64,000 nucleotides of DNA from a bacterium (GTDB lineage Bacteria; Patescibacteriota; Patescibacteriia; Magasanikbacterales; GWA2-37-8), in NCBI GenBank assembly GCA_043821725.1, contig JBDRCM010000006.1, positions 38,287 to 102,286 on the forward strand, given 5' to 3'. The notes under the pieces were generated by a model that worked only from the letters and a program-made list of their open reading frames with translations, did no database searches and was not told the DNA's origin. A program made the translations under genes and the position numbers. This document shows, one piece after another, positions 6,434-52,361 of the stretch (its first letter is position 1; every line of letters starts with the position of its first letter).

Positions 6434-6595
6434 GGGTCCGTCACCAAATACCATTTCTACTGTAATTAATAAATTATGGCCAAAATCGTTTCAAAATTTC
6501 TCGGCTTATCTTACAGATAGGGCTCAAAATTTGTTCAACAATTTTGTCTCATAATTTATCAATTTCGCTACGAAAGCGCATTTGGCGACAGACCC
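6434..6595 (+). mobile_element. Tn3-like MITE copy 1 (162 bp) with 5-bp TSD TAAAA
   Basis: TIR GGGTCCGTCACCAAAT ... ATTTGGCGACAGACCC. TAAAA is present at 6429..6433 and 6596..6600. Confidence 0.75.
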
Positions 6596-6639
6596 TAAAA
6601 AGAAAAAACGCTTGAATTATTGCGTTTTTTCGTATTTTT

Positions 6640-6960
6640 TTGAAAAAAAATGATGAGGGCCCCCTGTATTAGAGATGATATAGGGAGCCAACATCTTCCC
6701 TATACAGGGGGTATTTTATTTTCTGCCAGCACAGCGCATCCTAGTAGAGTAGTCCTGCGCGTTTTCCGGTGGGACGAGCCGTTATTTCACAGACGTCTTC
6801 CAAGCTCTGCACGCCAGAAGAGCTGTAAAACCACCACGGTGCACCTTGACTCTCCTTCCTGTTGTCAGGACTTCTTCTCGGGGTACTTTCTCTTCCTCCT
6901 CGACTTCCTGTTTTTTTGTATTTCTTTGCCACTGTCTGAGCTCCCTTTTTTCCGATTGAG
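6640..6960. other. GC-rich ~320-bp segment between two MITE copies; candidate structured RNA or gene remnant
   Basis: Local GC is clearly above surrounding DNA. A long imperfect hairpin sits at 6657..6710 (CCCCCTGTAT...ATACAGGGGG). Only low-complexity, unconvincing ORFs are present (6650..7006 +, 6741..6932 -). Confidence 0.25.
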
Positions 6961-6967
6961 GTTAACA

Positions 6968-7202
6968 GGATCTGTCACCAAATACCATTTCTACTGCAAT
7001 TCATAAATTATAGCCAAAATCGTTTCAAAATTTCTTGGCTTATCTTACAGATAGGCCTCAAAATTTTTTATCAAGCGAAGCGAGAGAAAAGAAAAATGAT
7101 AATTTTTCTTTTCCGAGCGAGCGAAGATAACTATGGAATTATCAACGATTTTGTCTCATAATATATTAATTTCGTTGCGAAAGCGCATTTGGCGACAGAC
7201 CC
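6968..7202 (+). mobile_element. Tn3-like MITE copy 2 (235 bp) with perfect 5-bp TSD TAACA
   Basis: TIR GGATCTGTCACCAAAT ... ATTTGGCGACAGACCC. TAACA is present at 6963..6967 and 7203..7207. Its internal sequence is shared with the copies at 19827 and 47110. Confidence 0.8.
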
Positions 7203-7383
7203 TAACAGGATTTATAATATTTTACACTTAAAACACTAAAATGTCAACAGTAATAAACCCGACATTGCAACAAGCCACCCCACATTTATGCTTGCACACC
7301 AGGCAAAAATATGCTAAAATATACTCATTCATAAACTTGTCAGATCCAAATATTTATTCATTTTTAGCAAAAAATTTACTTAT

Positions 7384-7998
7384 ATGCACATAAGCTGGCT
7401 CGGACAAACATGCGTAAAAATACAGACAAAAAATATCAATGTTGACTCTACTATTGTTATAAATGCGTATAAACCAAAAAAAGGATCTTTTCCCCGCTAT
7501 TTCAGCCCTGAAATCGCTCTGTTTTCATCAGGAATGGATAATACTGCCACTTTATCGCAAAATCCTTTTGTCATCAGTACATTAGGCGAATTTGAAATGC
7601 AAGGCATTGTGATATATTCTCTTCCGGACGATGAAAATAATCGAATTTTTAAACTGGTCAGTGAGGGAATGACCATTGTCCATCTTGGCAAATTAAACAA
7701 AAATATAGAAAACAGCCGATTGGAAAAAATAATGAATCCTGATATTTTATTCATTCCGGTTGGAGGAAGGCCGAATTATTTGGAAAGAAAAATGGCTGCC
7801 TCTTTGGCAACGGCAATTGAACCGCGCATAATTATTCCTATTGGATTCAAATGCGACACAGATCCAGACTCCAAGCCGATTTCAATGTTTGTTGATGAAG
7901 CAGGCCTTAAGCCGGAAAATCAAACCAAAAAAATTATTATCAAAAAAAAGGACTTGCCTGCGGATGAAACCAAATTGATAGTTCTGGACAAGGAGTAA
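7384..7998 (+). CDS. metallo-beta-lactamase-fold hydrolase (UPF0173-like)
   Basis: The N-terminus MHISWLGQTCVKIQ matches the M.ITWLGHSCF.IE start of UPF0173/MBL-fold metal-dependent hydrolases. 204 aa. Confidence 0.5.
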   Translation: MHISWLGQTCVKIQTKNINVDSTIVINAYKPKKGSFPRYFSPEIALFSSGMDNTATLSQNPFVISTLGEFEMQGIVIYSLPDDENNRIFKLVSEGMTIVHLGKLNKNIENSRLEKIMNPDILFIPVGGRPNYLERKMAASLATAIEPRIIIPIGFKCDTDPDSKPISMFVDEAGLKPENQTKKIIIKKKDLPADETKLIVLDKE

Positions 7999-8018
7999 AA
8001 AGAACAAAGGAATTAAAT

Positions 8019-8462
8019 ATGAATAAACCGCGGAAAAAAAATAAACATAAATTAACCATCAGGCCGGAAAATCCAAGAGCCAAAGCATTGATGTGGATCA
8101 GCGTTATTCTTTTTACGTGCGTAATTACCATCTTGTGGGCATGGTCAGCCAAAATTCAGCTGTCCGGAGTTGATCTGTCTATCAGCCAAGAAAGCGAAAT
8201 TTTAAGAAACACGCAAGCGCAATGGGAAAAAATATTTGCTGAAAATGACGTAACTCTGCCTTCTTCGCCAACATCTTCGGCCATTACAGCACCAACTTCA
8301 TCCGCTATAGAATTAATTGAATTGGAAAAAAGTTTGCGCGACTTATTTGGAAAAATGAATTCAACCACTACTGCCAGCACAACCACAAACTTTGGATCCT
8401 TAACCAAGATAACGTCAACGACAACAACCAATACTTTGAAGGCATCAACTTCATCACAATAA
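8019..8462 (+). CDS. hypothetical membrane-anchored protein with Ser/Thr-rich C-terminus
   Basis: 147 aa. A basic N-terminus is followed by one TM helix (ALMWISVILFTCVITILWAW) and an S/T-rich tail. Confidence 0.4.
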   Translation: MNKPRKKNKHKLTIRPENPRAKALMWISVILFTCVITILWAWSAKIQLSGVDLSISQESEILRNTQAQWEKIFAENDVTLPSSPTSSAITAPTSSAIELIELEKSLRDLFGKMNSTTTASTTTNFGSLTKITSTTTTNTLKASTSSQ

Positions 8463-8494
8463 GTTTTCAATATTGAAAAAGTAAATTATTATTT

Positions 8495-12939: not shown

Positions 12940-14256
12940 TTATTCGGCTTTTGCGCCCTTGTCAGTGGTGTTAGTGGTGTCAGTGGTGTTAGTGGTGTTA
13001 GTGGTGTCAGTGGTGTTAGTGGTGTCAGTGGTGTTAGTGGTGTTAGTGGTGTCCGGGCTTTCTGCGCCACTGCCAACGTCAACATTTTCATCTTCTTTCT
13101 TGTCATCCAGCTTTTCCCCTGTCTTATCGTTGGTTGGTTTTTCCTGCTTTATTTGTGGCTTCTTTGCTGTTATGTCCGGAAGCTTTAAACCAAGACGATG
13201 CTCGGGTGGCTCCAAAGAAACCACTTCAAACTCTCTTAAATCACCTATGTTAAATTCGTTCTTTATGCTTTCATTACCATTGGACACTTCTGAAATATGA
13301 GCAAGCCCATGAATTTCTTCGTCAAGAGCAACCATCAGCCCGAAGGGTTCTATTTTTATTATTTTTCCCTGAACTTTATCTCCGACTTTATATTTATCTT
13401 TAACTTTTTTCCATGGATCATCAACCAGTCGCTTGATTGACAAATATATTTTTGATTTGTCAAGCTGAATTATTTGCGCTTCTATATTGTCACCGACTTT
13501 CAAAACATCTCTTGGGTGGTCAATGCGCTTCCATGCAATTTCAGAAATATGAACAAGTCCTTCCAGTCCGACTCCGAACTTCACAAACGCTCCGAATGAA
13601 GTAAGAGCGCTGACTTCTCCCTCAATCTTGTTGCCGATTTTGTACGATTCAAGCACTGCTTTTTGCGAATCTTCCCAAACCGCCTTTTCTGAAACTATTA
13701 ATTTTTCCTCATTTTGATTGGCATCTATAATTTTAACTTCCAGGTCATTATTGATTAGTTCCTGTAATTTTTCCAAAATTCTAAGCTTATCGCCACCTGC
13801 CACTCGCGGATAATTGTCCGGCGACAGCTGGCTAACCGGCATAAATCCGGTTAAAGCATCAACCTGCATGATTAAACCGCCTTTGTTAGCTGCCACCACT
13901 CGTGATTTAACGGCTATGCCTTCATTCATGTATTTTTTCATATTTTCCCAAGCCCGTTTATAGCCGGCACTTCTAAAAGAAAGCTCCATCTCGCCATTTT
14001 CGTTTTCCAATTCCAAAACAGTGGCTTCAACTTTGTCGCCCACTTTTATTTCTGAATATTCCTTTGATTCTGTAAACAATTCACGACCGCGCACAACGCC
14101 GACCGTTAACCCTCTGATGTCCAATTTTATTGACCCCTTGTCAATTGAGATTACTTCGCACTCAACCACTTCATTAACTTTTGGAATGTCAACCTGATAT
14201 GACTCCAATAATGTTTGAAAGCTTGGCTGGTTGCTTGTTGGTACGTTTACATTCAT
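12940..14256 (-). CDS. rpsA: 30S ribosomal protein S1 (4 S1 domains) with a C-terminal (TTN/TTD)n low-complexity tail
   Basis: S1-domain motifs EGEVSALTSFGAFVKF and GLAHISEVS are present. The C-terminus reads ...SPDTTNTTNTTDTTNTTDTTNTTNTTDTTNTTDKGAKAE. Confidence 0.8.
   Translation of the reverse strand: MNVNVPTSNQPSFQTLLESYQVDIPKVNEVVECEVISIDKGSIKLDIRGLTVGVVRGRELFTESKEYSEIKVGDKVEATVLELENENGEMELSFRSAGYKRAWENMKKYMNEGIAVKSRVVAANKGGLIMQVDALTGFMPVSQLSPDNYPRVAGGDKLRILEKLQELINNDLEVKIIDANQNEEKLIVSEKAVWEDSQKAVLESYKIGNKIEGEVSALTSFGAFVKFGVGLEGLVHISEIAWKRIDHPRDVLKVGDNIEAQIIQLDKSKIYLSIKRLVDDPWKKVKDKYKVGDKVQGKIIKIEPFGLMVALDEEIHGLAHISEVSNGNESIKNEFNIGDLREFEVVSLEPPEHRLGLKLPDITAKKPQIKQEKPTNDKTGEKLDDKKEDENVDVGSGAESPDTTNTTNTTDTTNTTDTTNTTNTTDTTNTTDKGAKAE
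12961..13053. repeat. 9-bp tandem repeat (AGTGGTGTY x ~10) encoding the S1 TTN/TTD tail
   Basis: A direct tandem array is visible in the sequence, in-frame with rpsA. Confidence 0.85.
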
Positions 14257-14505: not shown

Positions 14506-14806
14506 AACTCATGTAGAGTTATTCAACATAATGCGCTATTACTAACGAAATGACAAATGTTAAAAAATGTCTGTCATTCTGAATCCCGACCTAGTCGGGA
14601 CTTATCCCGACCTAGTCGGGACTTATCCCGACCTAGTCGGGATGAAGAATCCCTTAAATAATTCACTTGAATTAATTTGAATGACCAGAGGGATCCTTCG
14701 CGGAGTTTATCCTCGAGCGTAGCGAAGGGCTCAGGATGACAGGTGAAGGAATCAGGATGACAGGTGACACGCTCAAGATGACATAGTGGTAAACTCTGTA
14801 TGAGTT
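14506..14806 (+). mobile_element. MITE family 2, copy L (~300 bp) with TIR AACTCATGTAGAGTT / AACTCTGTATGAGTT
   Basis: The terminal inverted repeats are visible. Internally there are 3 tandem 21-bp units CCCGACCTAGTCGGGACTTAT (14585..14641) and repeated TCAGGATGACAG motifs. It is an inverted near-copy of the element at 17039..17264. Confidence 0.7.
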
Positions 14807-14830: not shown

Positions 14831-16180
14831 ATGAAATATTTTTTACTACGATTTCTACCAGCACTGTGTTTTGTATTGATTATAGGCGGGTGTAATACGA
14901 ATAGAAATACAGTCATTATAAAACCACCTGCAAGCGCAGTATCTAACACAAACGCAAATCCAACAGCCAATGTAAACATAACTGTTGTTGCCAAATCCAC
15001 TACCTTAAATTCAACAACAACTCCAATTGCAAAAACAATTGATAAATATGATCTTTGGTCAAAAGGCGTTAAACTGCGTGGCGCCAACATCTATCAAAGG
15101 CGGGTCTATCCGGATTTAGACGGCAACTCATTCGGTCCGGGTTTGGTTGGCCCTGTTTATACTCAAAAAGATTTTGATGGTTTATCCGCTTTAGGTGCCA
15201 ACTGGGTGCAAATTGAACATCCCGGCCTATATTCTGAAAAACCACCTTATAGATTAGATGGCGAAGTGCAAATCAATCTTGATAATCTCATTAGCATGGC
15301 TTCAAAAGCAAATATGTTTGTTACAATCGCTTTTCGAACAGGCCCGGGCAGATCTGAATTCACTTTTTATGATGAGGATGATGACGATTGGTTTGATGAC
15401 AGTTATAGAAATGACAAAGTATGGAAGGATGAAACCGCCCAGCAGGCATGGGCTGACATGTGGGAGTATACAGCTGAAAGATACAAAAACAATCCAATAG
15501 TTGTTGGCTATAATCTTATGGTTGAACCGAACGGCGAGTCCAGAGCGTTTTCAGAAGAGCTATGGGAGCCAGATGAATTTTATCCAAAATACAAAAATTC
15601 CATGGCTGATTGGAATCAAATGTATCCAAAGTTGGTTTCTGCAATCAGAAAAAACGACAAGAATACGCCGATTTTAGTCGGACATATGGCTTACAATTCC
15701 GTAAATTGGCTTCCATACTTAAATGATGTAAACGGCTCAAAAATAGTTTGGATAGCGCACCAATATGAACCATACGCATATACGCATGACGCGCAATCCA
15801 ATACAAAATACCCGTCAACATTTAAATGGTATGGAGAAAAAATTATTTTAGATAAGAACTATTTGAAAACGATTTACGATCTGGCGAAAAATACAGCAAC
15901 TAAAAATAGCAGACCGCTCGCAATTGATGAATTTGGTGTTTACAGATTTAAAGAAGGCGCTTCCCAATTTCTTGAAGATAGCATGAATCTTATGGAAGAG
16001 CGCGGTACCAATTATTGCATATGGTCATGGGATTCGGCGCAAAGGGCTAAAAACTTTCCTGAAGACGATCAATTTGATTTTACAAGAGGCGCCAACAAAA
16101 AAAATCATGAACCGGTTCAAAATCCGTTGCTGGATGTTGTAAAAAAATACTGGCAAAAAAATTCTGCCAGGCCTTTTTAA
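14831..16180 (+). CDS. glycoside hydrolase family 5 (cellulase-like) lipoprotein
   Basis: A lipoprotein signal (LIIGGC) is present. GH5 features are GANWVQIEHPG, a catalytic acid context GYNLMVEPNGE (NEP), and a nucleophile context IDEFGV. Confidence 0.6.
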   Translation: MKYFLLRFLPALCFVLIIGGCNTNRNTVIIKPPASAVSNTNANPTANVNITVVAKSTTLNSTTTPIAKTIDKYDLWSKGVKLRGANIYQRRVYPDLDGNSFGPGLVGPVYTQKDFDGLSALGANWVQIEHPGLYSEKPPYRLDGEVQINLDNLISMASKANMFVTIAFRTGPGRSEFTFYDEDDDDWFDDSYRNDKVWKDETAQQAWADMWEYTAERYKNNPIVVGYNLMVEPNGESRAFSEELWEPDEFYPKYKNSMADWNQMYPKLVSAIRKNDKNTPILVGHMAYNSVNWLPYLNDVNGSKIVWIAHQYEPYAYTHDAQSNTKYPSTFKWYGEKIILDKNYLKTIYDLAKNTATKNSRPLAIDEFGVYRFKEGASQFLEDSMNLMEERGTNYCIWSWDSAQRAKNFPEDDQFDFTRGANKKNHEPVQNPLLDVVKKYWQKNSARPF

Positions 16181-16202: not shown

Positions 16203-16264
16203 TTTATTAACGCAACGTAGCGAGGATTTTGCTGAGCGGGATCTTGGCACAGGGAGGGGTTCAT
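16203..16264 (-). repeat. copy B (short, ~62 nt) of the ATGAACCCCTCC...GCGTTAATAAAA repeat family
   Basis: The reverse complement reads ATGAACCCCTCCCTGTGCCAAGATCCCGCTCAGCAAAATCCTCGCTACGTTGCGTTAATAAAA. It abuts the TGA stop of the GT2 gene. Confidence 0.6.
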
Positions 16265-17004
16265 AATTCATTTGTGCGAGGAGGCAAATAGTTGGTTTGC
16301 CTTCCAAAACACATCTTGACAAAATTCCAAGCAAGAACTGCCAGTTTTATGTTAAGTTTGAATCTGCGCGATGATACAAAATACCGCAATGAGCAATCAA
16401 CCTTGATTTTACCAAACTCACTTAATCTGCGGGTCAAGTCAGCGTCTTCTCCAAATTTTAAATTCTCATCAAACCCGCGTGTTTTATCATATAATTCTTT
16501 TTTAAAAACCATGCCATTGCCGATTGGGCCCACTTTATTGAATGAAGCTATTTTGGCAAAAAACAATATGGGTCTAAAAAAAACAACGCAAGCCGCGTTC
16601 TTCAAAATAGATCCATCATAAAAATAAAACTGTCCTCCAAGACAGGCAAGATTTTCATCCTCCTCAAATCGCTTAAGCGCCTGTTGTAAAAAATCACAAG
16701 GAAGATTAGTATCAGCGTCTATCTGTACTATGTATTTGCCTTGCGCGACTTCAGCGCCTTTTTTTCTAGCGCTTCCAACGCCTCTTTTATCTTCCTTTAC
16801 CAAACTTGCTCCTTTTGAACGCACTATTTGATTGCTCATGTCTGTTGAGCCGTTGTCAACCGCTATTATGTCATAATTAAAATCGCCTTGCTGATTTTTC
16901 GCGTGTTCAAGACAAGATCCAATATATTTCTCTTCATTATATAGAGGCACGACTATGCTGAACAATATCTCATCATTTAAATTATTGTGAGCGTTAATTT
17001 TCAT
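16261..17004 (-). CDS. family 2 glycosyltransferase
   Basis: FSIVVPLYNEEKYIGSCLEHAKNQ...DIIAVDNGSTD and the DxD context QIDADT are typical of a GT-A fold GT2. Confidence 0.7.
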   Translation of the reverse strand: MKINAHNNLNDEILFSIVVPLYNEEKYIGSCLEHAKNQQGDFNYDIIAVDNGSTDMSNQIVRSKGASLVKEDKRGVGSARKKGAEVAQGKYIVQIDADTNLPCDFLQQALKRFEEDENLACLGGQFYFYDGSILKNAACVVFFRPILFFAKIASFNKVGPIGNGMVFKKELYDKTRGFDENLKFGEDADLTRRLSEFGKIKVDCSLRYFVSSRRFKLNIKLAVLAWNFVKMCFGRQTNYLPPRTNEL

Positions 17005-17038: not shown

Positions 17039-17264
17039 AACTCATACAGAGTTTAGCACTATGTCATTCTGAACCCTTCGCTCGCTCGAGGATAAACTCC
17101 GCGAAGAATCCCTTAGATAACGCGAGAGGGCGCGGAGTTTACCCTTGAAGGAAGTGAAGGACTCCCTCAGGATGACAGGACAGATACTCAGGATGACAGA
17201 CATTTTTTAACATTTATCATTTCGCTAGTAATAGCGCACTATGTTGAATAACTCTATATGAGTT
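17039..17264 (-). mobile_element. MITE family 2, copy R (~226 bp), inverted relative to copy L
   Basis: TIR AACTCATACAGAGTT / AACTCTATATGAGTT. Its arms are reverse complements of both arms of the copy at 14506..14806, e.g. ATGTCTGTCAT(C/T)CTGA and CTTCGCGGAGTTTATCCTCGAGCG. Confidence 0.7.
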
Positions 17265-18629: not shown

Positions 18630-19001
18630 TCAATTTAATGTTTCCAAATATGTATTAAGTAAAATGATTGCCGACTTCTCATCCCTGCTTGCGCTTTCTG
18701 CCCCTCCCATTCTATCTGACATTTGCGAGCTAAATCTTTCATCTACAAAATTAACTTCTACGCCTGATTGTTCTTTAATTTGTTCTGCAAAATTGCGGAT
18801 CTTGCGTGTATTGTCATTTTCAGAACTGTCCAAAGATAGCGGAAGACCCAACACTATTTTATCAATTTTTTCTTTTATAATCAAATCTATAACTTCAATT
18901 GGCCCGCCTGCTTGACCATAGGGAAGAACAACGTCTGCCGATGAATTCCAGATAGCAAGGCCTATTCGCTTGGTTCCAAAATCAATTGACAATATTTTCA
19001 T
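18630..19001 (-). CDS. ruvX: Holliday-junction resolvase-like RuvX/YqgF
   Basis: MKILSIDFGTKRIGLAIWNS...IVLGLPLSLD matches the YqgF consensus. Confidence 0.8.
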   Translation of the reverse strand: MKILSIDFGTKRIGLAIWNSSADVVLPYGQAGGPIEVIDLIIKEKIDKIVLGLPLSLDSSENDNTRKIRNFAEQIKEQSGVEVNFVDERFSSQMSDRMGGAESASRDEKSAIILLNTYLETLN

Positions 19002-19810
19002 ATGATTTCCTTTTGTTCATTCGGTCTTCTTGTTACGATTTTGTTGCCTCTCTTTCCTATAACCACAGTATGCTCATAATGAGCGCACAAAGAGCTGTCT
19101 GCCATTTCAATTGCCCAACCATCTGTTGCAGTGGCTATTTTATAATCGCCTAAAGACACCATTGGTTCAATGGCGATCACCATCCCGCTTTTCAATTTCC
19201 AATCCTGCAAACCCTTGTCAAAATAATTTGGAATGCGCGGCTCTTCATGAACCTCATATCCGACTCCATGCCCGACAAGATCCCGCACTATGCCATAATG
19301 ACCTTGGCTTTTTACATACTCCTCAATTGCTTTACCAATATCTGCCACGCTATTGCCGGGTTGAGCAGCTCTAATGCCCTCTTCCAGCGCCTGCTTTGTC
19401 ACTAATAATAAATCTCTGACTTCATCCGGTGCCTGTCCAATTATTATTGTTATTGATGTATCTGTATAAAAACCGCGATAATTTTTTTTAATTGGATATT
19501 CCATGCCAATATCAATGCTGAAAATATCGCCTTCTTTCAAACGCGCGCTTTTACGCGCGCAAGCATGCACCAACTGGTGATTTATAGAAGCGCAAATAGT
19601 GGAAGGAAAAGCTGATTCTTCAGGTCTGTTTCTATATCCTTTAAACGACGGCCTACCGCCTGCTTGTTGAATCATTTTTTCAGCCACCTGATCAATATCC
19701 CAAGTGCTTAATCCCGGCTTTGATATTTTAGCAAGCTTGGATAATATATTACCAAGAATTTTGCCGCCTTTTTCAATTTGTTGAATAGCTTCTTTATTCT
19801 TTATGTGCAT
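18998..19810 (-). CDS. map: methionine aminopeptidase type I
   Basis: FDIGMEYPIKKNYRGFYTDTSITI, HGVGYEVHEEPRIPNY, and the metal-ligand contexts are present. It lies at the end of the spc-secY-adk-map cluster. Confidence 0.85.
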   Translation of the reverse strand: MHIKNKEAIQQIEKGGKILGNILSKLAKISKPGLSTWDIDQVAEKMIQQAGGRPSFKGYRNRPEESAFPSTICASINHQLVHACARKSARLKEGDIFSIDIGMEYPIKKNYRGFYTDTSITIIIGQAPDEVRDLLLVTKQALEEGIRAAQPGNSVADIGKAIEEYVKSQGHYGIVRDLVGHGVGYEVHEEPRIPNYFDKGLQDWKLKSGMVIAIEPMVSLGDYKIATATDGWAIEMADSSLCAHYEHTVVIGKRGNKIVTRRPNEQKEII

Positions 19811-19826
19811 ATTATTTTGCTAATAA

Positions 19827-20089
19827 GGGTCTGTCGCCAAATACCATTTCTACTGCAATTGATAAATTATGACCAAAATCGTTTCAAAATTTCTTGGCTT
19901 ATCTTACAGATAGGCCTCAAAATTTTTTATCAAGCACTTAATATTAGGCCAAACGGTAAAGAATATCTCATATATTTTTTTCGCGCTGCCACTTCGCCGC
20001 GTCTGCGAAAAAGATATATGACATATTCTTCATCTTTATTACACTGCGTTAGTTAATTTCACTATGAAAGAGCATTTGGAGACAGACCC
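19827..20089 (+). mobile_element. Tn3-like MITE copy 3 (263 bp), inserted between the adk stop and the map start
   Basis: The left TIR GGGTCTGTCGCCAAAT is intact. The right TIR is degenerated (ATTTGGAGACAGACCC). The flanking 5-mers are AATAA and ACTAA, a 4/5 match. Confidence 0.7.
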
Positions 20090-20090
20090 A

Positions 20091-20759
20091 CTAAACAACG
20101 CCCAAAAGTATTTTTTCAATCAACAGTTCAACTTCGTCAATGGTTTTACTGCCATCAACTTTTTTCAGTACTCCCAATTGTCGGTAGTAATTCAGTATCT
20201 CAATCATTGCATTGTTTCCCTGTTTTTCAATTCTTCTTCTTATTATATCTTCAGAATCATCTTGCCGTTCAACAAGATTATTATTGCACTTTGGGCACGT
20301 TGCTAATTCTTTTGTTGATTCAAGCCAAGGAATTAATTCTTTGCATTGCTCGCACACACGCCTTTTTGTTAGACGGTTGAATGACTCTTCATCAGACAAA
20401 CTTACTTCCAATGCAATAAGTTCACTTTCCATCTTTATCTCTTTGATATGTTGCTGATACTTTTTTGCCTGCTCAATGTTGCGAACGGCTCCGTCCAAAA
20501 CAACTCCGCGCCCTTCATTAAAAATTTTATCCATTTCCTGAAATGCCAGATCATATATAAGCCAATCAGGAACTAACTTACCCTGTTTCATTTCCAAAAG
20601 AGCTTTTTTTTGCTTTTCATTGGCATTGCCATTGGCCTGAAGCGCCCGCAACAAATCACCGGTTGAAATATGGCCGTAATTGTATTTTTCAGCTATTTTT
20701 TTGGCTTGAGTTCCCTTGCCACTGCCCGGAGATCCTATCATTATGATTATTTTTTTCAT
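20091..20759 (-). CDS. adk: adenylate kinase with a zinc-binding lid
   Basis: MKKIIIMIGSPGSGKGTQAKKIAEKYNYGHISTGDLLR. The lid cysteines are CEQC...CPKC. Confidence 0.9.
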   Translation of the reverse strand: MKKIIIMIGSPGSGKGTQAKKIAEKYNYGHISTGDLLRALQANGNANEKQKKALLEMKQGKLVPDWLIYDLAFQEMDKIFNEGRGVVLDGAVRNIEQAKKYQQHIKEIKMESELIALEVSLSDEESFNRLTKRRVCEQCKELIPWLESTKELATCPKCNNNLVERQDDSEDIIRRRIEKQGNNAMIEILNYYRQLGVLKKVDGSKTIDEVELLIEKILLGVV

Positions 20760-31623: not shown

Positions 31624-31677
31624 GGATCTGTCACCAAATACCATTTCTACTGCGAAAGCGCATTTGGCGATAGACCC
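31624..31677 (+). mobile_element. Tn3-like MITE copy 4 (54-bp minimal version: fused TIRs only) with perfect 5-bp TSD TATAA, inserted between rpsJ and rplC
   Basis: GGATCTGTCACCAAATACCATTTCTACTGCGAAAGCGCATTTGGCGATAGACCC. TATAA is present at 31619..31623 and 31678..31682. Confidence 0.8.
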
Positions 31678-31958: not shown

Positions 31959-32321
31959 TTACATTTTTATTTCAATATCAACTCCGGCTGGAATCTGTAA
32001 ACTCATCAAGGCGTCAATGCACTTTGGAGTCGGATTTATAACATCAATCAACCGCTTATGCACACGCATCTCGTACTGCTCGCGAGATGTCTTGTTAATA
32101 AAAGTTGACCGATTGACAGTGAACTTTGTTTTTTCGGTTGGCAATGGAACCGGTCCAACTACTTTTGCATTGTTTCTCAATGCCGTATCAATAATATTTT
32201 TAGCGGCCTGATCAATTATCTTATTGTCATAGGCCCTAATCTTTATCCGTATCCTGTTAATGACATCAGTATTGGTGCTATCCACCTTTTTCTTGATTGT
32301 GCTTTCAGTTGGGTCTGGCAT
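31959..32321 (-). CDS. rpsJ: 30S ribosomal protein S10
   Basis: INRIRIKIRAYDNKIIDQAAKNIIDTALRNNAKVVGPVPLPTEK...RLIDVINPTPK. The start is taken at the internal MPDPTES (32321); the ORF-track start 32381 nearly abuts tuf. Confidence 0.85.
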   Translation of the reverse strand: MPDPTESTIKKKVDSTNTDVINRIRIKIRAYDNKIIDQAAKNIIDTALRNNAKVVGPVPLPTEKTKFTVNRSTFINKTSREQYEMRVHKRLIDVINPTPKCIDALMSLQIPAGVDIEIKM

Positions 32322-32388
32322 GTTGTAAAAGGAAATATTCAAGAAATGCCAGATCCCCGGATATAATCCGAGGATCTGCACTTGCTTT

Positions 32389-38963: not shown

Positions 38964-41564
38964 ATGACCCCAACAATCAAAAAAATAACTTTTTTAAGTT
39001 CGCTTGTGATGGTTTTAATTACAGCGCTTATACTTGCAAAATATCTTCCGGCAAGTCCGGCTATTTCAGCGGACAGTTCTTGCCCCGCTCTCAATCTGGG
39101 TGACTTAATAAAAGTAAACGGTGACAGCAAAACAGTATATACTCTCAATCCCAACAACGAACTAGTGTACTTTCCAAATATAAATGTATTAAGAACTTGG
39201 GAATATAGCCCGACAAATTATGTAACAATAGGCGCGGACTGCTTGGAATCGTTTCCCGTGCCAACCGGCCAATCAGCAGTTATACAACGCGCAGGTACAT
39301 ATATTGTCAAACGCCAATACGGCAATGAACTTCGCGCTGTTCTTCCAGGCGGAATTCTATCAACAATAACACCTGAAGCGGCGCGCGTTCTTTATGGAAA
39401 CAAAAAAGGTGAATATGTTGTGCTTGCAATCAATCACTATATATGGCCAAACTACCTAACCACCGGACAACCAATCAACGCGCTGGAAGAAAGTGATGTG
39501 CGGTTGCATCCGGGAATGTTGGCTTATGTAAAAGGAAGATCATATTATGTTGATACAAGCAATGTATTGCATGAAATAACTGCTGAAGGGATAAGAGCTA
39601 ATAACTTTCAAACTCGTTTTAGACGCGGATTTTTAGAAAATGTCATAAAAGATATGACAATGGGCAGTAAAATAAACAGAGCCCTTCCTCATTTGCTTGA
39701 TATGACCCAGCGCACAACTGAAAATTATGATCTAACTCCGCCAATGCCAACTCTAACGGGAGCGGCATCAACAAATACAGTACGCGTAAACTGGAAGGCT
39801 TACGCCGGATCCGGCTTTAAAAAATATTATATTGTCAGATCTGAAACAAACACAAATCCAAAATATCCGACTGACGCTGTAATTTCCTCATCAACGCGCA
39901 TTAACTTTATTAATTATACTGACTTGAATCTGCCTGATGACTTCACATACCATTACAACTTATGCGTTGAGCAAGCAAGCAATGTTATTGTGTGCTCAGA
40001 ACCAATTACAGTTTCTCAAAGTCCTATAATACCGCCACCAACAACAAATGGAACGGTTTACTATATCCGAACGGATGGTGGTAATGCCAGCCAATGTGAT
40101 GGTTTGGAAAACACTGCATACCCGGGCACAGGCACCAACCAAAACTGCGCTTGGAAGCATCCGTTTGTAGCGCTTCCACCGGAAGGCACAGCGCGAATTT
40201 CAGGCGGGGATACTTTAATGATAGCAAACGGATCTTACAAAATGGGATATGGCGCCTCTGCAGGAGATGAAGGATGTGCAAGCGCATATTCTTATGACTG
40301 CATTATGGCTCCAATACCGTCCGGACCTGATGCCAGCCACAAGACCCTTATTCTTGGAGAAAACTGGAACACAGGATGTTCAAGCAAGCCACAGCTTTGG
40401 GGTTCAGGCAGGCCTTGGGCAATTCTTGATATGAATAATAAAAGCAACATTGAATTGCAGTGTTTGGAAATAACAGACAGGTCATCTTGCGTTGAATTCC
40501 ACAGCGGAGGTAACTCATGCAATAGAGACAGCGCGCCTTTTGGCGACTGGGCATCAACCGGATTGCGCGCTTCCGGTTCAAGCAATGTGCTGTTAAAGAA
40601 TTTGGATATTCATGGACTGGCGCACACAGGGATTTATGCCGGCCGACTAACCAACTGGACAATTGAAGATACAAAAATTCAAGGCAATGGCTGGGTTGGA
40701 TGGGACGGAGATGTTGACGGCAATGATTCAAACAGCGGAACAACCACTTTCAAACGCGTTAATATTGATTGGAATGGATGCGGAGAAACATACCCGGGAA
40801 GACTGCCAACCGGTTGCTGGGGACAAAGCGCCGGCGGATATGGAGACGGACTTGGAACAGGAGCCACAGCAGGCAACTGGCTAATTGAGGACTCAACATT
40901 TTTGCACAATACTTCTGATGGGCTTGATCTGCTATACCACAGAGGCGGAGGCAAAATTACCATCAGGCGCGTCCATGCTGAAGGCAATGCAGGCAACCAA
41001 ATTAAAACAAATGGCAATGCTGAAATAACAGACAGCGTAATAGTTGGCAATTGCGGATATTTTCAAGGAAAATCATTTACCCATAATGTTGATGCTTGCA
41101 GGGCGCTTGGAAATGCCATGTCAGTAAATATGGAGGGATCTACCAGCCCAATACTAATCTACAACAATTCAATTTACAGTGAAGGCGATTGCGCCTTAAT
41201 AAGCGAAGGCGGATCAAACACAATTACATCAAGAAATAATATATATTATGCGGGCACTGATTATTGGCAACCGTTTGAAAAATCCTGCTTATTCTATACC
41301 GGCGCTAACGCAAGATTTGATACTGACTATGATATTGCGTTTCAAACCAAAGACAGCAATAATTATTGTGCACTAGGAAGCCATAATCTTTGCAATACAG
41401 ATCCAAAATTCGCTTCAATTGAGCCAACATCATTTGATTTGCGCTTAAAGGATTCCAGCCCAGGAATCAATAGAGGAACAACGCCTATCACAACAATTGA
41501 TTTTATGGGCGACAACAGGACAAAAGGAAGTACAACTGACATTGGCGCGTATGAAATGAAATAG
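38964..41564 (+). CDS. paralogous large secreted beta-helix protein (N-terminal domain, FN3-like insert, C-terminal beta-helix ending DIGAYE)
   Basis: The C-terminal ~480 aa are roughly 75-80% identical to the upstream paralogue and include a 135-bp stretch of 100% DNA identity (40117..40251 = 37486..37620). An FN3-like segment (VRVNWKAYAGSGFKKYYIVRSE) replaces the S/T/G linker. Confidence 0.55.
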   Translation: MTPTIKKITFLSSLVMVLITALILAKYLPASPAISADSSCPALNLGDLIKVNGDSKTVYTLNPNNELVYFPNINVLRTWEYSPTNYVTIGADCLESFPVPTGQSAVIQRAGTYIVKRQYGNELRAVLPGGILSTITPEAARVLYGNKKGEYVVLAINHYIWPNYLTTGQPINALEESDVRLHPGMLAYVKGRSYYVDTSNVLHEITAEGIRANNFQTRFRRGFLENVIKDMTMGSKINRALPHLLDMTQRTTENYDLTPPMPTLTGAASTNTVRVNWKAYAGSGFKKYYIVRSETNTNPKYPTDAVISSSTRINFINYTDLNLPDDFTYHYNLCVEQASNVIVCSEPITVSQSPIIPPPTTNGTVYYIRTDGGNASQCDGLENTAYPGTGTNQNCAWKHPFVALPPEGTARISGGDTLMIANGSYKMGYGASAGDEGCASAYSYDCIMAPIPSGPDASHKTLILGENWNTGCSSKPQLWGSGRPWAILDMNNKSNIELQCLEITDRSSCVEFHSGGNSCNRDSAPFGDWASTGLRASGSSNVLLKNLDIHGLAHTGIYAGRLTNWTIEDTKIQGNGWVGWDGDVDGNDSNSGTTTFKRVNIDWNGCGETYPGRLPTGCWGQSAGGYGDGLGTGATAGNWLIEDSTFLHNTSDGLDLLYHRGGGKITIRRVHAEGNAGNQIKTNGNAEITDSVIVGNCGYFQGKSFTHNVDACRALGNAMSVNMEGSTSPILIYNNSIYSEGDCALISEGGSNTITSRNNIYYAGTDYWQPFEKSCLFYTGANARFDTDYDIAFQTKDSNNYCALGSHNLCNTDPKFASIEPTSFDLRLKDSSPGINRGTTPITTIDFMGDNRTKGSTTDIGAYEMK

Positions 41565-45182: not shown

Positions 45183-45866
45183 ATGGACAATATAGAATTA
45201 GACAAGTTGGTTTCTGAATTGCAAATATCAAAAGATCAAATATTGCGTGAGGAAGCAGAAATGTTATTTTTAGATCAGCTTGGAAAAAATAGAATATCTT
45301 CAAAACTGGTTTTTTATGGTGGAACTGCTTTGCGGTTAGCATATAATTCCCCCCGTTTCTCTGAAGACATAGATTTACTAATGATTGGCAATGTATCACT
45401 ATCAGAGCTTAAAATTTTTTTGAACACAATTCTTAAAAAGAACGATAATTGGAAGTTGATTGATATAAAGAACAAGCGCCAGATATTATTTGCCTTGATA
45501 AATATCAAAGATGAAAAATTAAAACATAATTTTTCAATTAAGATAGAGATTCATAAACCCAAGAAAAAAATAGATGTTGAATATAATTTGGCCTCAATCC
45601 AGAGCCCAACAAGTATAGCTCAACCCCTGTTATTAGTACCGAGCATAGAAGCAATGAAAGAATTAAAAATAGCAACAATTAAAGACAAAAAAAAAGCGCG
45701 AGATATATTTGATTTATGGTTCATCTTCCAAAAAATGCGAGAACCCTTTGTTATAGGGCAAAAAGTTAAATACAAAGAAAATGAGTTTAAAAATGAATTA
45801 CAAGTTTTTTTACCCAAAAAATATTATCCGCTAGTAAAACAATTGTATGAACAAGTTAGTGAGTAG
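45183..45866 (+). CDS. abiEii: AbiEii/AbiGii-family nucleotidyltransferase toxin (DUF1814)
   Basis: LVFYGGTALRLAYNSPRFSEDIDLLMIGN is the hallmark AbiEii motif. 227 aa. Confidence 0.7.
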   Translation: MDNIELDKLVSELQISKDQILREEAEMLFLDQLGKNRISSKLVFYGGTALRLAYNSPRFSEDIDLLMIGNVSLSELKIFLNTILKKNDNWKLIDIKNKRQILFALINIKDEKLKHNFSIKIEIHKPKKKIDVEYNLASIQSPTSIAQPLLLVPSIEAMKELKIATIKDKKKARDIFDLWFIFQKMREPFVIGQKVKYKENEFKNELQVFLPKKYYPLVKQLYEQVSE

Positions 45867-46938: not shown

Positions 46939-47109
46939 CACCTCCCCCCGGAGTCGAACACATCGACTGCCCCGTAGCAACCCCGGTCTTTCCGACTGCC
47001 GACAAGGGTTGCTTCATTTTTTATAATCCGCGTTTGCGCTTTGCGCGATAATGCCGTATCATAATATACAACATTTGATATTGAATCTGATGACATAAAT
47101 ATCTAATAC

Positions 47110-47344
47110 GGGTCTGTCGCCAAATGTGCTTTCGTAGCGAAATTGATAAATTATGAGACAAAATTGTTGATAATTCCATAGTTATCTTCGCTCGCTCGGA
47201 AAAGAAAAATTATCATTTTTCTTCTCTCTCGCTTCGCTTGATAAAAAATTTTGAGGCCTATCTGTAAGATAAGCCAAGAAATTTTGAAACGATTTTGGCC
47301 ATAATTTATTAATTGCAGTAGAAATGGTATTTGGTGGCAGACCC
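47110..47344 (-). mobile_element. Tn3-like MITE copy 5 (235 bp, reverse orientation) with perfect 5-bp TSD AATAC
   Basis: GGGTCTGTCGCCAAATGTGCTTTCG ... AGTAGAAATGGTATTTGGTGGCAGACCC. AATAC is present at 47105..47109 and 47345..47349. Confidence 0.8.
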
Positions 47345-47399
47345 AATACGCACATCATCAGCCATAAGTCCACATTAAATTAATTGCTAACCCACTAAT

Positions 47400-48515
47400 A
47401 TGCAACTACTGCTAACTTTTATTTTCTGCGCTCTATCGCTCGCCGTACTTGCGGCATTGTATCTTTTTTATAAAAAAATATCAGCTTCCCAAAAGTCGCC
47501 TGACTCAGACCAGCACTTGTTCGTAATGCTACAAAATCAAATTCAGGAAACAAACAGATTGATTGACCAAAAAATGAATGAAACAAACAAAACAATGAAT
47601 GATACGCGCCACAACCTCAACCAAACAATACAGGATCAGTTCGGGCAAAGCGCCAAGTTTATCAGAGGAATAACCGAGCAGAGCAACAAAATGATTGTTG
47701 ACATAACTGAAAAATTAACCAGCTTGGATAAAACCAATCAACAGGTCATTGGATTTTCCGAACAATTGAACAACTTGGAAAAAGTTTTAACAAGCCAAAA
47801 AACGCGTGGTAATCTTGGCGAAGCCGGACTTCAGCTTGTTTTGGAAAACATACTTCCGCCGGGCGCTTATAAATCCCAATACCAATTTGAAGACGGCGAC
47901 ATTGTGGACGCGGTCATAATAACAAAGGAAGGCATGATTCCGATTGATGCAAAATTCTCACTTACTAACTACCAGCGCTTGTTCGACGAAAAAGACGAGC
48001 GCAGGCGCGTTGAATTGGAAAAAGAATTTAAAAATGATTTAAAAAAGCGCATTGATGAAACATCCAAGTATATAAAACCAAAATACGGAACAATGGAATT
48101 TGCTTTTATGTTCATTCCGGCTGAAGCAATTTATTATGACTTGCTTGTAAATCAAGTTGGCGCCATAAAAAGCAACACACGCAATATGATTGATTATGCT
48201 TTTACTGAAAAAAAAGTCATCATTGTTTCGCCAACCACATTTTCCGCTTATTTGCAGACAGTGCTTCAGGGACTAAGGGCTTTCAAAATTGAAGAAAGCG
48301 CCAAAGAAATCCGCGAAAATGTGCAAAAACTGGGTAAGCACATTATTACCTATGAAGATTTCATGAAAAAGCTGGGCTCCAGCATAGGAACATCGGTCAA
48401 TCATTATAATCATGCTTACAAAGAGCTTGCTAAAATAGACAAAGATGTGGTGCGCATTACTCAAGGAGAGCGCGCCATTGAACCGGAGCTGATTGAAAAA
48501 CCTGCGGTTGAATAA
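47400..48515 (+). CDS. rmuC: DNA recombination protein RmuC
   Basis: N-terminal TM helix, a long coiled coil, and a C-terminal domain (EFAFMFIPAEAIYYDLL...VSPTTFSAYLQTV) typical of RmuC. Confidence 0.65.
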   Translation: MQLLLTFIFCALSLAVLAALYLFYKKISASQKSPDSDQHLFVMLQNQIQETNRLIDQKMNETNKTMNDTRHNLNQTIQDQFGQSAKFIRGITEQSNKMIVDITEKLTSLDKTNQQVIGFSEQLNNLEKVLTSQKTRGNLGEAGLQLVLENILPPGAYKSQYQFEDGDIVDAVIITKEGMIPIDAKFSLTNYQRLFDEKDERRRVELEKEFKNDLKKRIDETSKYIKPKYGTMEFAFMFIPAEAIYYDLLVNQVGAIKSNTRNMIDYAFTEKKVIIVSPTTFSAYLQTVLQGLRAFKIEESAKEIRENVQKLGKHIITYEDFMKKLGSSIGTSVNHYNHAYKELAKIDKDVVRITQGERAIEPELIEKPAVE

Positions 48516-49729: not shown

Positions 49730-50270
49730 ATTTGTTATATATACAATAGTATATACCTCTTCAAAATTATAGTCAAGCTTATGCTAAGCTATCATATATC
49801 TTAATTCAATCAATTACTCACTTTAACCGACTTTACATGTCCCAATAGTTAATGATATTGTTACTATCTATTAAAATCGCGCTATAAATTAGTGCATAAT
49901 TCGTCTTGGAGGTTAGATGTCAACGACAACTAACAGCGTAAAAATCGAAAATCTGAGGATATGTATCAATATAGTTCCGGTCACGAGTTTGATCGAACTG
50001 TATAAAGATGGTAAAATCTCAGAACTGAAACTGGAGTTTGAAAGAGACTCAGCCGGCAACATCATTTATACAGATAGCTTTATGGCAGACTACTGCGACA
50101 TTCTCGCCGGTTTCGGCATACAGGGGCTGATTTAAATCTGATTTTTGCATTGCTCAAAGTCCAGGCCCTCCATGCTCGTGCGTTGTTAACGGCTCAAACA
50201 CGGATGGGCAACATTATCCACTCTATTGAGGAGTGTTTTTTTATCACAATTATAGCTAATGGGGATGCGA

Positions 50271-50424
50271 ATGAACCCCTCCCTGTGCCAAGAGCACAGG
50301 GTATCAGGTCAAAAGGCATAATGTCTGCGACTCTACGCCGTGGCAAGACCACGGGGTACTTTACCTGCGCTCGCTCGGAAATGAAAACAAGTTTTCATTT
50401 CTCTCACTTCGCTTGGTAATAAAA
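50271..50424 (+). repeat. copy C (~154 nt) of the ATGAACCCCTCC...TAATAAAA structured repeat family
   Basis: ATGAACCCCTCC, then hairpin CTGTGCCAAGAGCACAG, then GGTATCAGG..., then hairpin CCGTGGCAAGACCACGG, then hairpin GGAAATGAAAACAAGTTTTCATTTC, then CTTCGCTTGGTAATAAAAAG. Confidence 0.65.
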
Positions 50425-50615
50425 AGATAATCTTGCCTAAATTTATTTTTATGATATACTTATGCTAATTTAACTTGTCCCATTGGTATCCTTTTGGGAC
50501 TTGTTCAGTAATAGAAAACTATACCTTTGACTATTCTCTACGTGCCCATCATGAGGGGCAAGCCACTGCTATGCCTTAATAACTCTGCTTCAATTTTAAA
50601 AACCCAATCAAATTT

Positions 50616-51083
50616 ATGAAGACAATCCTATTCATCGGCAGATTTCAACCTTTTCACATAGGTCATTTGTCAGTATTAAAAAAGATTGACAAGCGAAATG
50701 ATGTAAAAAAAATTATAATAGGAATTGGAAGCGCTCAATATAGCAATACGCAAAAAAATCCATACAGTTTTGAACAAAGAAAAAAGATGATTGTAAACGT
50801 TTGTAAATCCAAAATAAAAAAGTCGATTACGGTTATTCCTTTAGATGATTTTAACAATAACGCGAAATGGGTTAAAAACGTTGAAAAAATGGCTAAAATC
50901 TTCAATGAGGCCTACTCAGGAAATGATTTAGTGACAAAACTACTGTCCGAACGGGGATATTTGATCAATAAAATAGACAAATCAATTGACATTAGCGCGA
51001 CAAAAATCAGAGAAATGATTAAAAAAGGAGATATTCAATGGAAAAAATACATTCCCTATTCTGATGCTGAAATCTATAATTAA
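50616..51083 (+). CDS. nicotinamide-nucleotide adenylyltransferase-like cytidylyltransferase (archaeal NadM type)
   Basis: ILFIGRFQPFHIGHLSVLKKI matches the (H/T)xGH nucleotidyltransferase motif of NMNAT. Confidence 0.55.
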   Translation: MKTILFIGRFQPFHIGHLSVLKKIDKRNDVKKIIIGIGSAQYSNTQKNPYSFEQRKKMIVNVCKSKIKKSITVIPLDDFNNNAKWVKNVEKMAKIFNEAYSGNDLVTKLLSERGYLINKIDKSIDISATKIREMIKKGDIQWKKYIPYSDAEIYN

Positions 51084-51100
51084 TGCCTGCCATGGCCTAT

Positions 51101-51171
51101 GGGCCTATGGTCTAATGGTACGACGCCACACTCGCATTGTGGAAATAGGAGTTCGATTCTCCTTAGGTCCA
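51101..51171 (+). tRNA. tRNA-Ala (anticodon CGC) with the G3:U70 identity pair
   Basis: The acceptor stem GGGCCTA pairs with TAGGTCC, with G3 pairing T. The anticodon stem CCACA/TGTGG carries loop CTCGCAT, giving CGC. The T-arm is AGGAG-TTCGATT-CTCCT. Confidence 0.7.
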
Positions 51172-51239
51172 CGGGCGATGGCAGGCAAAAATGAATTTAC
51201 TCGCAATCAACCTCCGAAAATTTAAAAATCTTTAAAATA

Positions 51240-51560
51240 ATCGTAAAATCCTTAAAAAAACAGGCCAAGTTCCGATAAAACGCAGATTCCCCCGAAAAGA
51301 GAACTCTTTCTTTGCTAAAAACAGATAGTTCCGATAAAAGGAAATAATGCGTTTGTATACACTATCCTGTACAAAAAATACTTATTTAAGTATTTTTTTG
51401 ATTTTTTGGTATATTTTGTTAATTTTCTGTGGATAAAGTTGTGCATAAAGTGTTGAATCTGGGGATAATTTGTATAGGATAGCGTATACAAATTAAGATT
51501 TTTTGAAATTTTGCGTTTTTTTGGTCTTTTTTTTGTATAGGATACTCTATACATTTAGAA
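51240..51560. promoter_or_regulatory. AT-rich non-coding region with three copies of a 24-bp palindromic motif and a 13-bp direct repeat (operator/iteron-like)
   Basis: TTTGTATAGGATAGCGTATACAAA at 51471..51494. Variants occur at 51352..51375 (TTTGTATACACTATCCTGTACAAA) and 51532..51555. AGTTCCGATAAAA is repeated at 51258 and 51328. Confidence 0.4.
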
Positions 51561-51763
51561 CCATATTTTTTATCAATATTTTTCAAAATCGTCGTTCCCT
51601 GTGAAACCGGTATATATTTTATGTAAAAATTGATTATCAACAAAAAAACCGCCAAATGTAAATCATGGCGATTTTTTTATTCTCACTGCGCACCATATTT
51701 TGATGCGAAGAATTGAATCCCAACTTGTCCGGACGGACTTAACCTGCTGTTGGGGGAGCAGTA

Positions 51764-52237
51764 CTATTTATAATGAGCCGTAGAAGGTGGATCAACGATG
51801 GTGAGATACCCTTCTAGCCATGTACCCTCCAACTCTTTGGTCAGTAATCTAGCGAATTTTTTAACCAAGATATGGTCAAAATAGCCGAAGCTACCACTGG
51901 CGCCATAGAAACGGATGGTTCCACAGACATGGTTCACCGATATTACTCCACCACCGAAGATGTGGAGATCGCCTCCATGTTCTTGGAGGTAGTACTTGGC
52001 TATATCACTATGATAGGATCCGTCGCCTCCACTGATGAGAGTGTATTCATTGTTATGAGAGCCAACAATGAATTTAACACCATATTTATCGGCCATGACG
52101 TGTTCAATTTCGCTCATGGCATCTTCGACTTCTCCTTTCACAATCCGCTGTTCTATATCTTCCCAATCTTCTCCGATTAATTCTTCCCATTCTGCAAGTT
52201 TATCTTTATTGGTCAACCAGTCGATCACAATCTTCAT
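51764..52237 (-). CDS. hypothetical protein
   Basis: 157 aa (MKIVIDWLTNKDKLAEWEELIGEDWEDIEQR...). It is flanked by a MITE and a family-3 repeat. Confidence 0.4.
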   Translation of the reverse strand: MKIVIDWLTNKDKLAEWEELIGEDWEDIEQRIVKGEVEDAMSEIEHVMADKYGVKFIVGSHNNEYTLISGGDGSYHSDIAKYYLQEHGGDLHIFGGGVISVNHVCGTIRFYGASGSFGYFDHILVKKFARLLTKELEGTWLEGYLTIVDPPSTAHYK

Positions 52238-52281
52238 TTAACCCTCCTGTGCAATACAAGTATTTGTATATTTGCCTGTAT

Positions 52282-52361
52282 GGGCCTGTCGCCAAATACC
52301 ATTTCTACTACAATTGATAAATTATGAATTTCGTCACGAAAGCGCATTTGGCGACAGACCC
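52282..52361 (+). mobile_element. Tn3-like MITE copy 6 (80 bp) with perfect 5-bp TSD TGTAT
   Basis: GGGCCTGTCGCCAAATACCATTTCTACTACAATTGATAAATTATGAATTTCGTCACGAAAGCGCATTTGGCGACAGACCC. TGTAT is present at 52277..52281 and 52362..52366. Confidence 0.8.

Follow-up and report, generated by a model that had tools for sequence, protein, structure and literature searches.

Six repeats in a Magasanikbacterales genome as probable members of a Patescibacteria family of miniature inverted-repeat transposable elements

ERIC and Correia elements duplicate the dinucleotide TA, REP sequences and REPINs are not known to carry a target-site duplication (TSD) and depend on RAYT (HUH) enzymes, and insertions of IS6-family elements make 8-bp duplications. 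Duplications of 5 bp, rarely of 6 bp, at AT-rich sites are produced by Tn3-family transposons and by the Tn3-derived miniature elements with inverted repeats (TIMEs) (PMC4133298). Here we analyzed a 64,000-nucleotide stretch of DNA from a bacterium of the Magasanikbacterales within Patescibacteriota (GenBank assembly GCA_043821725.1, contig JBDRCM010000006.1, positions 38,287 to 102,286 of the forward strand), hereafter called the window, which holds six short repeats. These repeats are very probably copies of a family of miniature inverted-repeat transposable elements, or MITEs, that is distributed across Patescibacteria (the Candidate Phyla Radiation, CPR) and has no transposase of its own. 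The observations behind this reading are the copies themselves, an exact 5-bp TSD, a target preference, empty orthologous sites in relatives, deletion derivatives, covariation between the two arms, and near-identity of copies between distant species.

Copies, target sites and distribution of the family

Searching the window with the 16-mer GGGTCTGTCGCCAAAT, with up to three mismatches allowed, returned 12 matches where about 0.4 are expected by chance, and these are exactly the 12 ends of the six copies that a preliminary description of this DNA had located. None of 100 shuffled windows reached 12 matches, and a profile hidden Markov model built from 40 canonical elements found no seventh copy, whole or partial, in the window. 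The copies, designated c1 to c6, are as follows.

c1, 6434..6595, + strand: 162 bp, canonical, oriented left to right along the + strand; TSD TAAAA at 6429-6433 and 6596-6600.
c2, 6968..7202, + strand: 235 bp, canonical with an additional hairpin module of ~69 bp at ~7073-7141; TSD TAACA at 6963-6967 and 7203-7207.
c3, 19827..20089, + strand: 263 bp, left half canonical, right interior replaced at ~19933-20039, giving a chimeric right half.
c4, 31624..31677, + strand: 54 bp, consisting of the two ends only; TSD TATAA at 31619-31623 and 31678-31682.
c5, 47110..47344, - strand: 235 bp, in inverted orientation, with the internal module seen in c2; TSD AATAC at 47105-47109 and 47345-47349.
c6, 52282..52361, + strand: 80-bp internal-deletion form that keeps 45 nt at the left end and 35 nt at the right; TSD TGTAT at 52277-52281 and 52362-52366.

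Comparison of the flanks confirmed the perfect 5-bp TSDs described for five of the copies and the imperfect one of c3, whose flanks AATAA (19822-19826) and ACTAA (20090-20094) agree at four of five positions. The first copy, c1, matched the full-length profile with E=1e-35. A composite c1...c2 transposon was ruled out by its differing outer flanks (TAAAA versus TAACA). Copies c2 and c5 are 95% identical, lie in opposite orientation at different loci and have a common internal insert of ~69-73 bp, and therefore this variant has transposed as a unit. Since the copies in the window are 94-98% identical to one another, their expansion is fairly recent, which agrees with the recent activity that had been proposed.

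The exact-pattern scan for the inverted repeat (IR) covered one genome per prokaryotic species as well as metagenome contigs and viral contigs. The genomes yielded 34 loci. Of these, 30 come from metagenome-assembled genomes (MAGs) whose labels read Patescibacteria, Falkowbacteria, Magasanikbacteria, Vogelbacteria or just 'bacterium'. Three others are in MAGs labelled Gammaproteobacteria, at least one of them with a CPR-like gene neighbour, and the last is a single site inside a glycosyltransferase-like open reading frame (ORF) of a Chitinophagaceae MAG, which is probably a chance match. At least 120 matches were obtained from metagenomes, many in groundwater contigs (Hainich wells H41, H43, H51 and others), and those listed also include chance matches to DNA of high GC content. 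In viral contigs the IR had only isolated single matches of the chance type (17 loci), and a blastn search of 72,556 plasmids found no relative of the IR. Rfam contains no family that matches the element or its neighbourhood. The window itself was correctly taken to be of CPR type, its ribosomal protein L2 (MFH1789610.1) having its best relatives in Magasanikbacteria, Parcubacteria and Patescibacteria.

Elements were then defined by pairing opposite ends no more than 450 bp apart, and the genome matches together with the metagenome matches listed gave at least 83 non-redundant ones. They are bounded by the 16-nt tip GGGTCTGTCGCCRAAT and spread over dozens of Patescibacteria MAGs. All are non-coding and belong to a multi-copy family in which lengths span 37-263 bp and 161 bp is the mode; 40 measure 160-164 bp, 17 are of 37 bp, five each are of 44 bp and 75 bp, and a few are longer. 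Identical flanks were found for 34 of the 83 elements at a length of five nucleotides and for none at six, seven or eight, while a control with one flank offset by 5 nt gave 0-1 of 83. The TSD is thus real and exactly 5 bp long. Its A+T content is 89% as against 76% in the adjacent flanks, and the reconstructed target is symmetric, T-[WWWWW]-R, with T at position -1 in 23 and a purine at +6 in 28 of the 34 cases.

Many contigs of two MAGs, H43-bin112_1 (JBBTVV01) from groundwater and Modern_marine.mb.217 (JAHJAP01) (loci L001-L034), begin or end inside an element, and copies must therefore be numerous enough in these MAGs to break the assemblies. Copies from the two MAGs are 94-97% identical to each other, which equals the identity within each genome, whereas their orthologous proteins are far less alike (DksA 71%, LspA 51%). 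Such a disparity points to an active element that has recently spread horizontally, or else to implausibly strong selection on every position. The window copies are 82% identical to the nearest copies in other genomes, and across lineages the tips are near-invariant while the interiors are only 48-82% identical.

Three syntenic relatives with 76-81% L2 identity have no copy in 47 kb. As the preliminary description had suggested looking for, empty sites do exist in two of these neighbourhoods: the spacer between adk and map is only 17 nt long in one relative (L177) and 56 nt in another (L172), and the site in the rplC leader is likewise element-free in both.

Palindromic architecture and mobilization of the element

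The canonical element of 160-164 bp (~161 bp) is an imperfect palindrome along its whole length, with 16-nt tips that are 92-100% conserved and a central stem-loop. Behind the tip, 14 nt differ according to the end, ACCATTTCTACTGC on the left and GCGCTTTCGTAGCG on the right, after which the two ends become similar again in AATTGATAAATTATG. Only nucleotides 17-30 break the symmetry, and there the right end nearly always reads CGAAAG or CAAAAG. The terminal inverted repeat (TIR) reported earlier is accordingly present, but it is not a simple 38-mer; it is longer and bipartite, made up of the 16-nt tip, the 14-nt end-specific block and the shared AATTGATAAATTATG. Calculated folds are stable in full and short copies alike. 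As single-stranded DNA, c1 forms one long hairpin (-23.6 kcal/mol, z=-4.6), and the RNA folds of c4 in the mRNA sense and of c6 reach -27.7 kcal/mol (z=-6.9) and -26.5 kcal/mol (z=-5.9), respectively.

When 24 diverse canonical elements were aligned, the arms paired over ~58 positions each, nearly to the centre of the element. Standard pairs fill 92% of the cells, compared with 78% in column shuffles and 30-48% after displacement of the partners by 1-3 columns. In 21 of 36 pairs both sides have changed in a compensatory manner, and cells with double-sided changes number 124 against 42 expected, a value that none of 500 shuffles attained. The central stem-loop differs by lineage (TTATCT/AGATAG, TTAAC/GTTAA, GTAGC/GCTAC, CTTGCTT/AAGCAAG and TGATAT/ATATCA). 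This covariation is compatible with three causes, singly or jointly: both ends co-evolving with a single binding protein, a hairpin under selection, and gene conversion between the arms.

Shortened forms of 37, 44 and 75 bp occur repeatedly, each with identical deletion junctions. In the 37- and 75-bp forms the junctions lie at short direct repeats, and these two forms may transpose as such or may arise repeatedly by deletion in place. Forms below 60 bp (37-54 bp) have TSDs in 10 of 26 cases and full copies in 16 of 40. Truncated solo ends (n=14) stop 25-55 nt from the tip, nine of them at 36-41 nt.

No transposase, integrase or resolvase was detected by Pfam among 40 ORFs of the window, which together with tblastn corroborates the earlier statement that the window encodes no transposase. 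Of each match elsewhere, up to 8-14 kb of sequence was taken, giving 172 related loci (1.15 Mb). Within these, no tblastn match of TnpA or TnpR of Tn1546 was better than E=1.9, and none was better than E=0.4 when the transposases of IS26 and IS257 were included. Pairs of IRs lying 1-6 kb apart, ORFs beside solo ends and ORFs common to several loci revealed ordinary host genes only. One IR match beside an ISL3 transposase and another beside a phage integrase were set aside as matches of the chance type in high-GC contigs, the real IR of that ISL3 element being GGCTCTTC. An autonomous element with the same IRs was found neither in the window nor in the 34 genome loci, the at least 120 metagenome loci or the 17 viral loci. 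The search for further copies and for a Tn3-family element with a matching IR, as had been proposed, gave more copies across genomes and, in these loci, no such element.

These results include several points that weigh against a MITE family mobilized in trans. No transposase was found in the window or beside solo ends, 583 ORFs from 104 AT-rich loci, when clustered all against all, formed housekeeping families and no multi-copy transposase, and no contig bounded by inward-facing IRs was seen. In addition, TSD matching is bimodal, with 34 perfect cases, 13 with one mismatch and 36 of 83 with two or more mismatches and hence without a TSD. The TSD-less copies could come from recombination between copies or from chimeric assembly over a repeat longer than the assembler's k-mer; an argument from them for replicative transposition was rejected as unsafe, as chimeric assembly would look alike. 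Finally, covariation over ~58 nt per arm plus a central stem exceeds what a simple transposase-binding TIR would need, and a second constraint may also act, through a hairpin in DNA or RNA or through gene conversion from one arm to the other.

In the proposed mechanism, a transposase supplied in trans would bind both ends and cut the target with a 5-bp stagger at an AT-rich site of consensus T-[WWWWW]-R, the element would be joined in, and gap repair would leave the 5-bp direct repeats. Such a course would suggest chemistry of the DDE type. Surviving copies lie only between genes, and inside operons they give the transcript a stable hairpin.

The preliminary description had derived the family from Tn3, and by this account the elements would be TIMEs, mobilized by a Tn3-family TnpA through replicative, cointegrate-forming transposition. 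We regard this, by analogy with the published elements, as possible yet short of probable. The TSD of exactly 5 bp at AT-rich sites is as in published TIMEs and the Tn3 family (PMC4133298), the termini are GGG...CCC, and the clustering of solo ends near the 38-40 bp of Tn3-family IRs is a weak hint in the same direction. The likeness to Tn3 noted for the first 12 nt stands for the tip, where, with an offset of one base, the first 11 nt match at 10 of 11 positions and the whole tip at 12 of 16. It does not extend to the rest of the IR, which in a hand alignment is at about background level, so that alignment with a Tn3-family IR over its full ~38-40 bp is limited to the tip. The reference IRs of Tn3 and Tn1546 matched public records at 100%, and that of IS257 was read from pLW043. 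The tip agrees equally well, at 12 of 16 positions, with the IS257 (IS6-family) IR GGTTCTGTTGCAAAGT, and IR similarity therefore does not discriminate between the two. TSD length does, and the absence of 8-bp repeats from all 83 elements excludes IS6.

Further details speak against TIMEs. The element starts with GGG rather than GGGG and has no inner TAAG-type motif, with which many Tn3-family IRs end. No homologue of TnpA or TnpR was detected by tblastn in the 1.15 Mb and no relative of the IR among the plasmids, and our literature search found no link of Tn3 with CPR. The 37- and 44-bp forms, with arms of only ~18-22 nt, are multi-copy and bear TSDs about as often as full copies, which would be unexpected of an element dependent on a 38-bp IR, although recurrent in-place deletion at microhomologies could explain them. 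Tn3 is favoured over other families by three features only, namely the length of the TSD, an AT-rich target and the GGG at the tip, and the Tn3 interpretation is only partly supported. To our knowledge the other families with 5-bp TSDs in the ISfinder family table start with TG, TGT, C or CC, not GGG, and no other family there is known to join a 5-bp TSD to a G-rich tip. Of the known families, Tn3 is thus tentatively the best fit without being demonstrated. The MITE nature and the true 5-bp TSDs of the earlier interpretation are retained, and its derivation from Tn3 is a reasonable lead but not established, with the equal match to IS257 and no TnpA or TnpR found in the window or the 1.15 Mb. 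We did not file the family as a TIME because neither a full-length Tn3 IR alignment nor a cognate TnpA was found.

A transposase outside the Tn3 family could equally be considered, belonging to another family with 5-bp TSDs or to an undescribed one, perhaps as a rare or single-copy host gene without IRs; by analogy, the latter would recall the relation of REPINs to RAYTs with target-duplicating chemistry instead. This too we hold as a tentative possibility. It is favoured by the failure to find a cognate transposon despite dozens of MITE-rich loci and many contigs breaking at the repeat, by the short end-only forms, which appear mobile, and by the near-invariance of the tips across lineages whose interiors diverge, which argues for a conserved, long-lived partner. 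However, the evidence for it is negative only and comes from the at least 120 metagenome matches listed, with up to 8-14 kb per match, multi-copy transposase genes are routinely lost from MAGs, and no candidate gene recurs beside the elements. An extension of this idea, which we consider unlikely, is that of an orphan, CPR-specific MITE lineage moved, and carried between species, by a transposase of an undescribed family or by a rare single-copy resident gene, with the hairpin itself under selection. The hairpin may then be a DNA or RNA structure needed for mobilization or may be tolerated as a transcript stabilizer. If true, bacterial genomes of the most streamlined kind would show a new relationship between host and element.

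Gene context of the copies and other features of the window

Elements with assessable flanking ORFs all lie between ORFs, apart from overlaps of at most 30 nt at ORF ends. The window contains six copies in 64 kb, about one per 10 kb, including its S10-spc ribosomal-protein cluster. Two of the copies, c3 and c4, are associated with the following genes, which were identified by Pfam.

map, 18998-19810, - strand.
adk, 20091-20759, - strand.
rplC, 30680-31618, - strand.
rpsJ, 31959-32381, - strand.

Both copies had been described as sitting in tight spaces of essential operons. This holds for c3, which lies between adk and map in a spacer that shrinks to ~12-13 nt when the element is subtracted together with one copy of the TSD; its right TSD copy includes the adk stop codon, and no terminator-like site is present inside the element. 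It does not hold for c4, since the spacer between rpsJ and rplC is 340 nt long with a promoter and hairpin of its own. The promoter is of the sigma-70 type and matches the consensus at 12 of 12 positions (TTGACA-17-TATAAT, 31921 to 31893), and it is followed by a conserved leader and then by a long terminator-like hairpin with a T-tract immediately before rplC, which is likely an attenuator. Copy c4 is inserted between this T-tract and the likely true rplC ATG (ATG AAG TTT ATC CTA GGT...), ~20 nt upstream of that ATG, which is itself ~15 nt inside the GTG-started ORF. The layout of promoter, leader and hairpin at window 31678-31958 (- strand) recurs in two related CPR genomes (L172 7588-7995; L177 4277-4590) and matches no Rfam family, and this spacer may represent an undescribed ribosomal-protein leader or attenuator.

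The remaining copies are intergenic as well, near rmuC, a gene for a TrmB-type regulator and a GC-rich segment. Copy c5 is upstream of rmuC (47400-48515, + strand), and c6 is between the divergent genes at 51764-52237 (- strand) and 52721-53245 (+ strand). Copies are likewise present within the cluster of ribosomal-protein and translation genes in other CPR genomes (L056 10887-11049, L057 11253, L116 1072-1146 and L169 53), where they occupy the tuf-fusA spacer and positions just upstream of rpsE and of adk. Each tip contains TTGGCG, a sequence akin to a promoter -35 box that faces outward at 8 nt from the end, and with an AT-rich target it could create a weak hybrid promoter-like site, as at c3, where 9 of 12 positions agree (19811-19840, - strand).

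Such positions in operons bear on the question of whether the repeat is instead a REP-like or structural-RNA element of the host, acting in mRNA stabilization, termination or regulation and flanked by coincidental repeats. The preliminary description had named a host REP-like element with chance TSDs as one outcome that would overturn its interpretation. The whole-length hairpin with strong compensatory covariation, the very stable folds and the presence of copies in ribosomal-protein operons of several genomes would all suit a host function. Relative to flanking co-directional genes, however, the elements are oriented 11 one way and 12 the other, so that a strand-specific RNA role is not supported; the orientation-specific RNA function suggested by five of five copies in the window disappeared in this larger set. 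An excess of perfect 5-bp TSDs of 34 of 83 over 0-1 of 83 in the controls cannot be coincidence, the flanking repeats vary from copy to copy and hence do not reflect a single fixed insertion motif, close syntenic relatives lack the family, and Rfam holds no match. We therefore consider a host repeat very improbable, although individual copies may have been co-opted for a secondary role.

Several other features of the window were recorded. Between c1 and c2, a GC-rich segment of ~370 bp (6596-6967) in this genome of 38% GC contains a strong hairpin with a T-run on the minus strand at ~6640-6700; it has no Rfam match, its 63-aa ORF has no Pfam match, and it is a candidate small RNA or small protein gene. 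The hairpin module of c2 (7073-7141) and c5 (47171-47239), with the structure CGCTCGCTCGGAAA.GAAAA...TTTTC.TTTCTCTC.CTTCGCTTG, has a third, free-standing copy at 50368-50422 and may constitute a second small repeat family. A 61-nt sequence at 3977-4037 is duplicated in inverted orientation at 50270-50330, with 98% identity and sharp borders; it has an internal hairpin CCCTGTGC...GCACAGGG and no Rfam match. Inverted duplicates of ~300 bp at 14506-14806 and 17039-17264, each bounded by AACTCATGTAGAGTT...AAACTCTGTATGAGTT, lie upstream of a gene of a GH5 cellulase family (14831-16180, + strand) and a GT2 glycosyltransferase gene (16261-17004, - strand). At least the first of them includes a 21-nt tandem repeat with a palindromic core, and both have motifs of the CAGGATGACAG type.

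Among the coding sequences, two tandem paralogous genes of ~866 aa (36326-38929 and 38964-41564) are 73-88% identical in blocks at the nucleotide level, the first with a weak beta-helix Pfam match. The C-terminal (low-coordinate, 3') end of an S1-domain gene (12940-14256, - strand) consists of 9-nt tandem repeats (GTGGTGTYA) at 12942-13076. Genes of toxin or defence type near the elements encode a BrnT-like toxin (3309-3617), an AbiEii nucleotidyltransferase (45183-45866) and a RhuM-family fragment (53647-53982).

Relation to known systems

The behaviour of the family is that of a classical MITE. What is new is the host group, how widely and densely the family occurs in genomes of very small size, the signs of recent transfer between species and the missing partner. 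CPR genomes are ~1 Mb in size with dense coding, and they are generally considered to contain little mobile DNA; our literature search found no description of MITEs in CPR, and a MITE survey of 183,232 genomes does not mention CPR. Near-identical copies in far-apart species point to ongoing horizontal exchange among these episymbionts. The element breaks MAG assemblies, and the family can serve as a marker for strain typing, for flagging assembly errors and in the hunt for the transposase and the vector.

Elements of the IS6/IS26 type resemble the family at 12 of 16 tip positions and in an outward -35-like motif, TTGGCG here and TTGCAA in the IRs of IS26 and IS257. They differ in that 8-bp repeats flank none of the 83 elements and no IS6 transposase homologue was found in the 1.15 Mb. 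ERIC/IRU, Correia/NEMIS and REPIN/REP sequences are, like this family, intergenic imperfect palindromes of ~100-160 bp that form transcript hairpins, vary in size through insertions and deletions, and occur in operons. In contrast to them, this family has exact 5-bp TSDs and an unrelated sequence, and the variable 5-bp duplications that flank its copies also set it apart from the REP/REPIN and IS200/IS605 signature of a fixed motif without TSD. The TIMEs (PMC4133298) and IS101 are alike in being small, non-coding and multi-copy, with long TIRs, 5-bp AT-rich TSDs and a transposase acting in trans. Published TIMEs have IRs of 39-41 bp that are clearly alignable to Tn3-family transposons of the same hosts (Pseudomonas), whereas the present family resides in CPR hosts, resembles Tn3 in the IR tip only, has a covarying palindrome along its whole ~161 bp and is accompanied by no cognate transposon that we could find. 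By its insertion signature the family is closest to TIMEs, and by its shape and its presence in transcripts it is closest to palindromic MITEs of the ERIC/Correia type.

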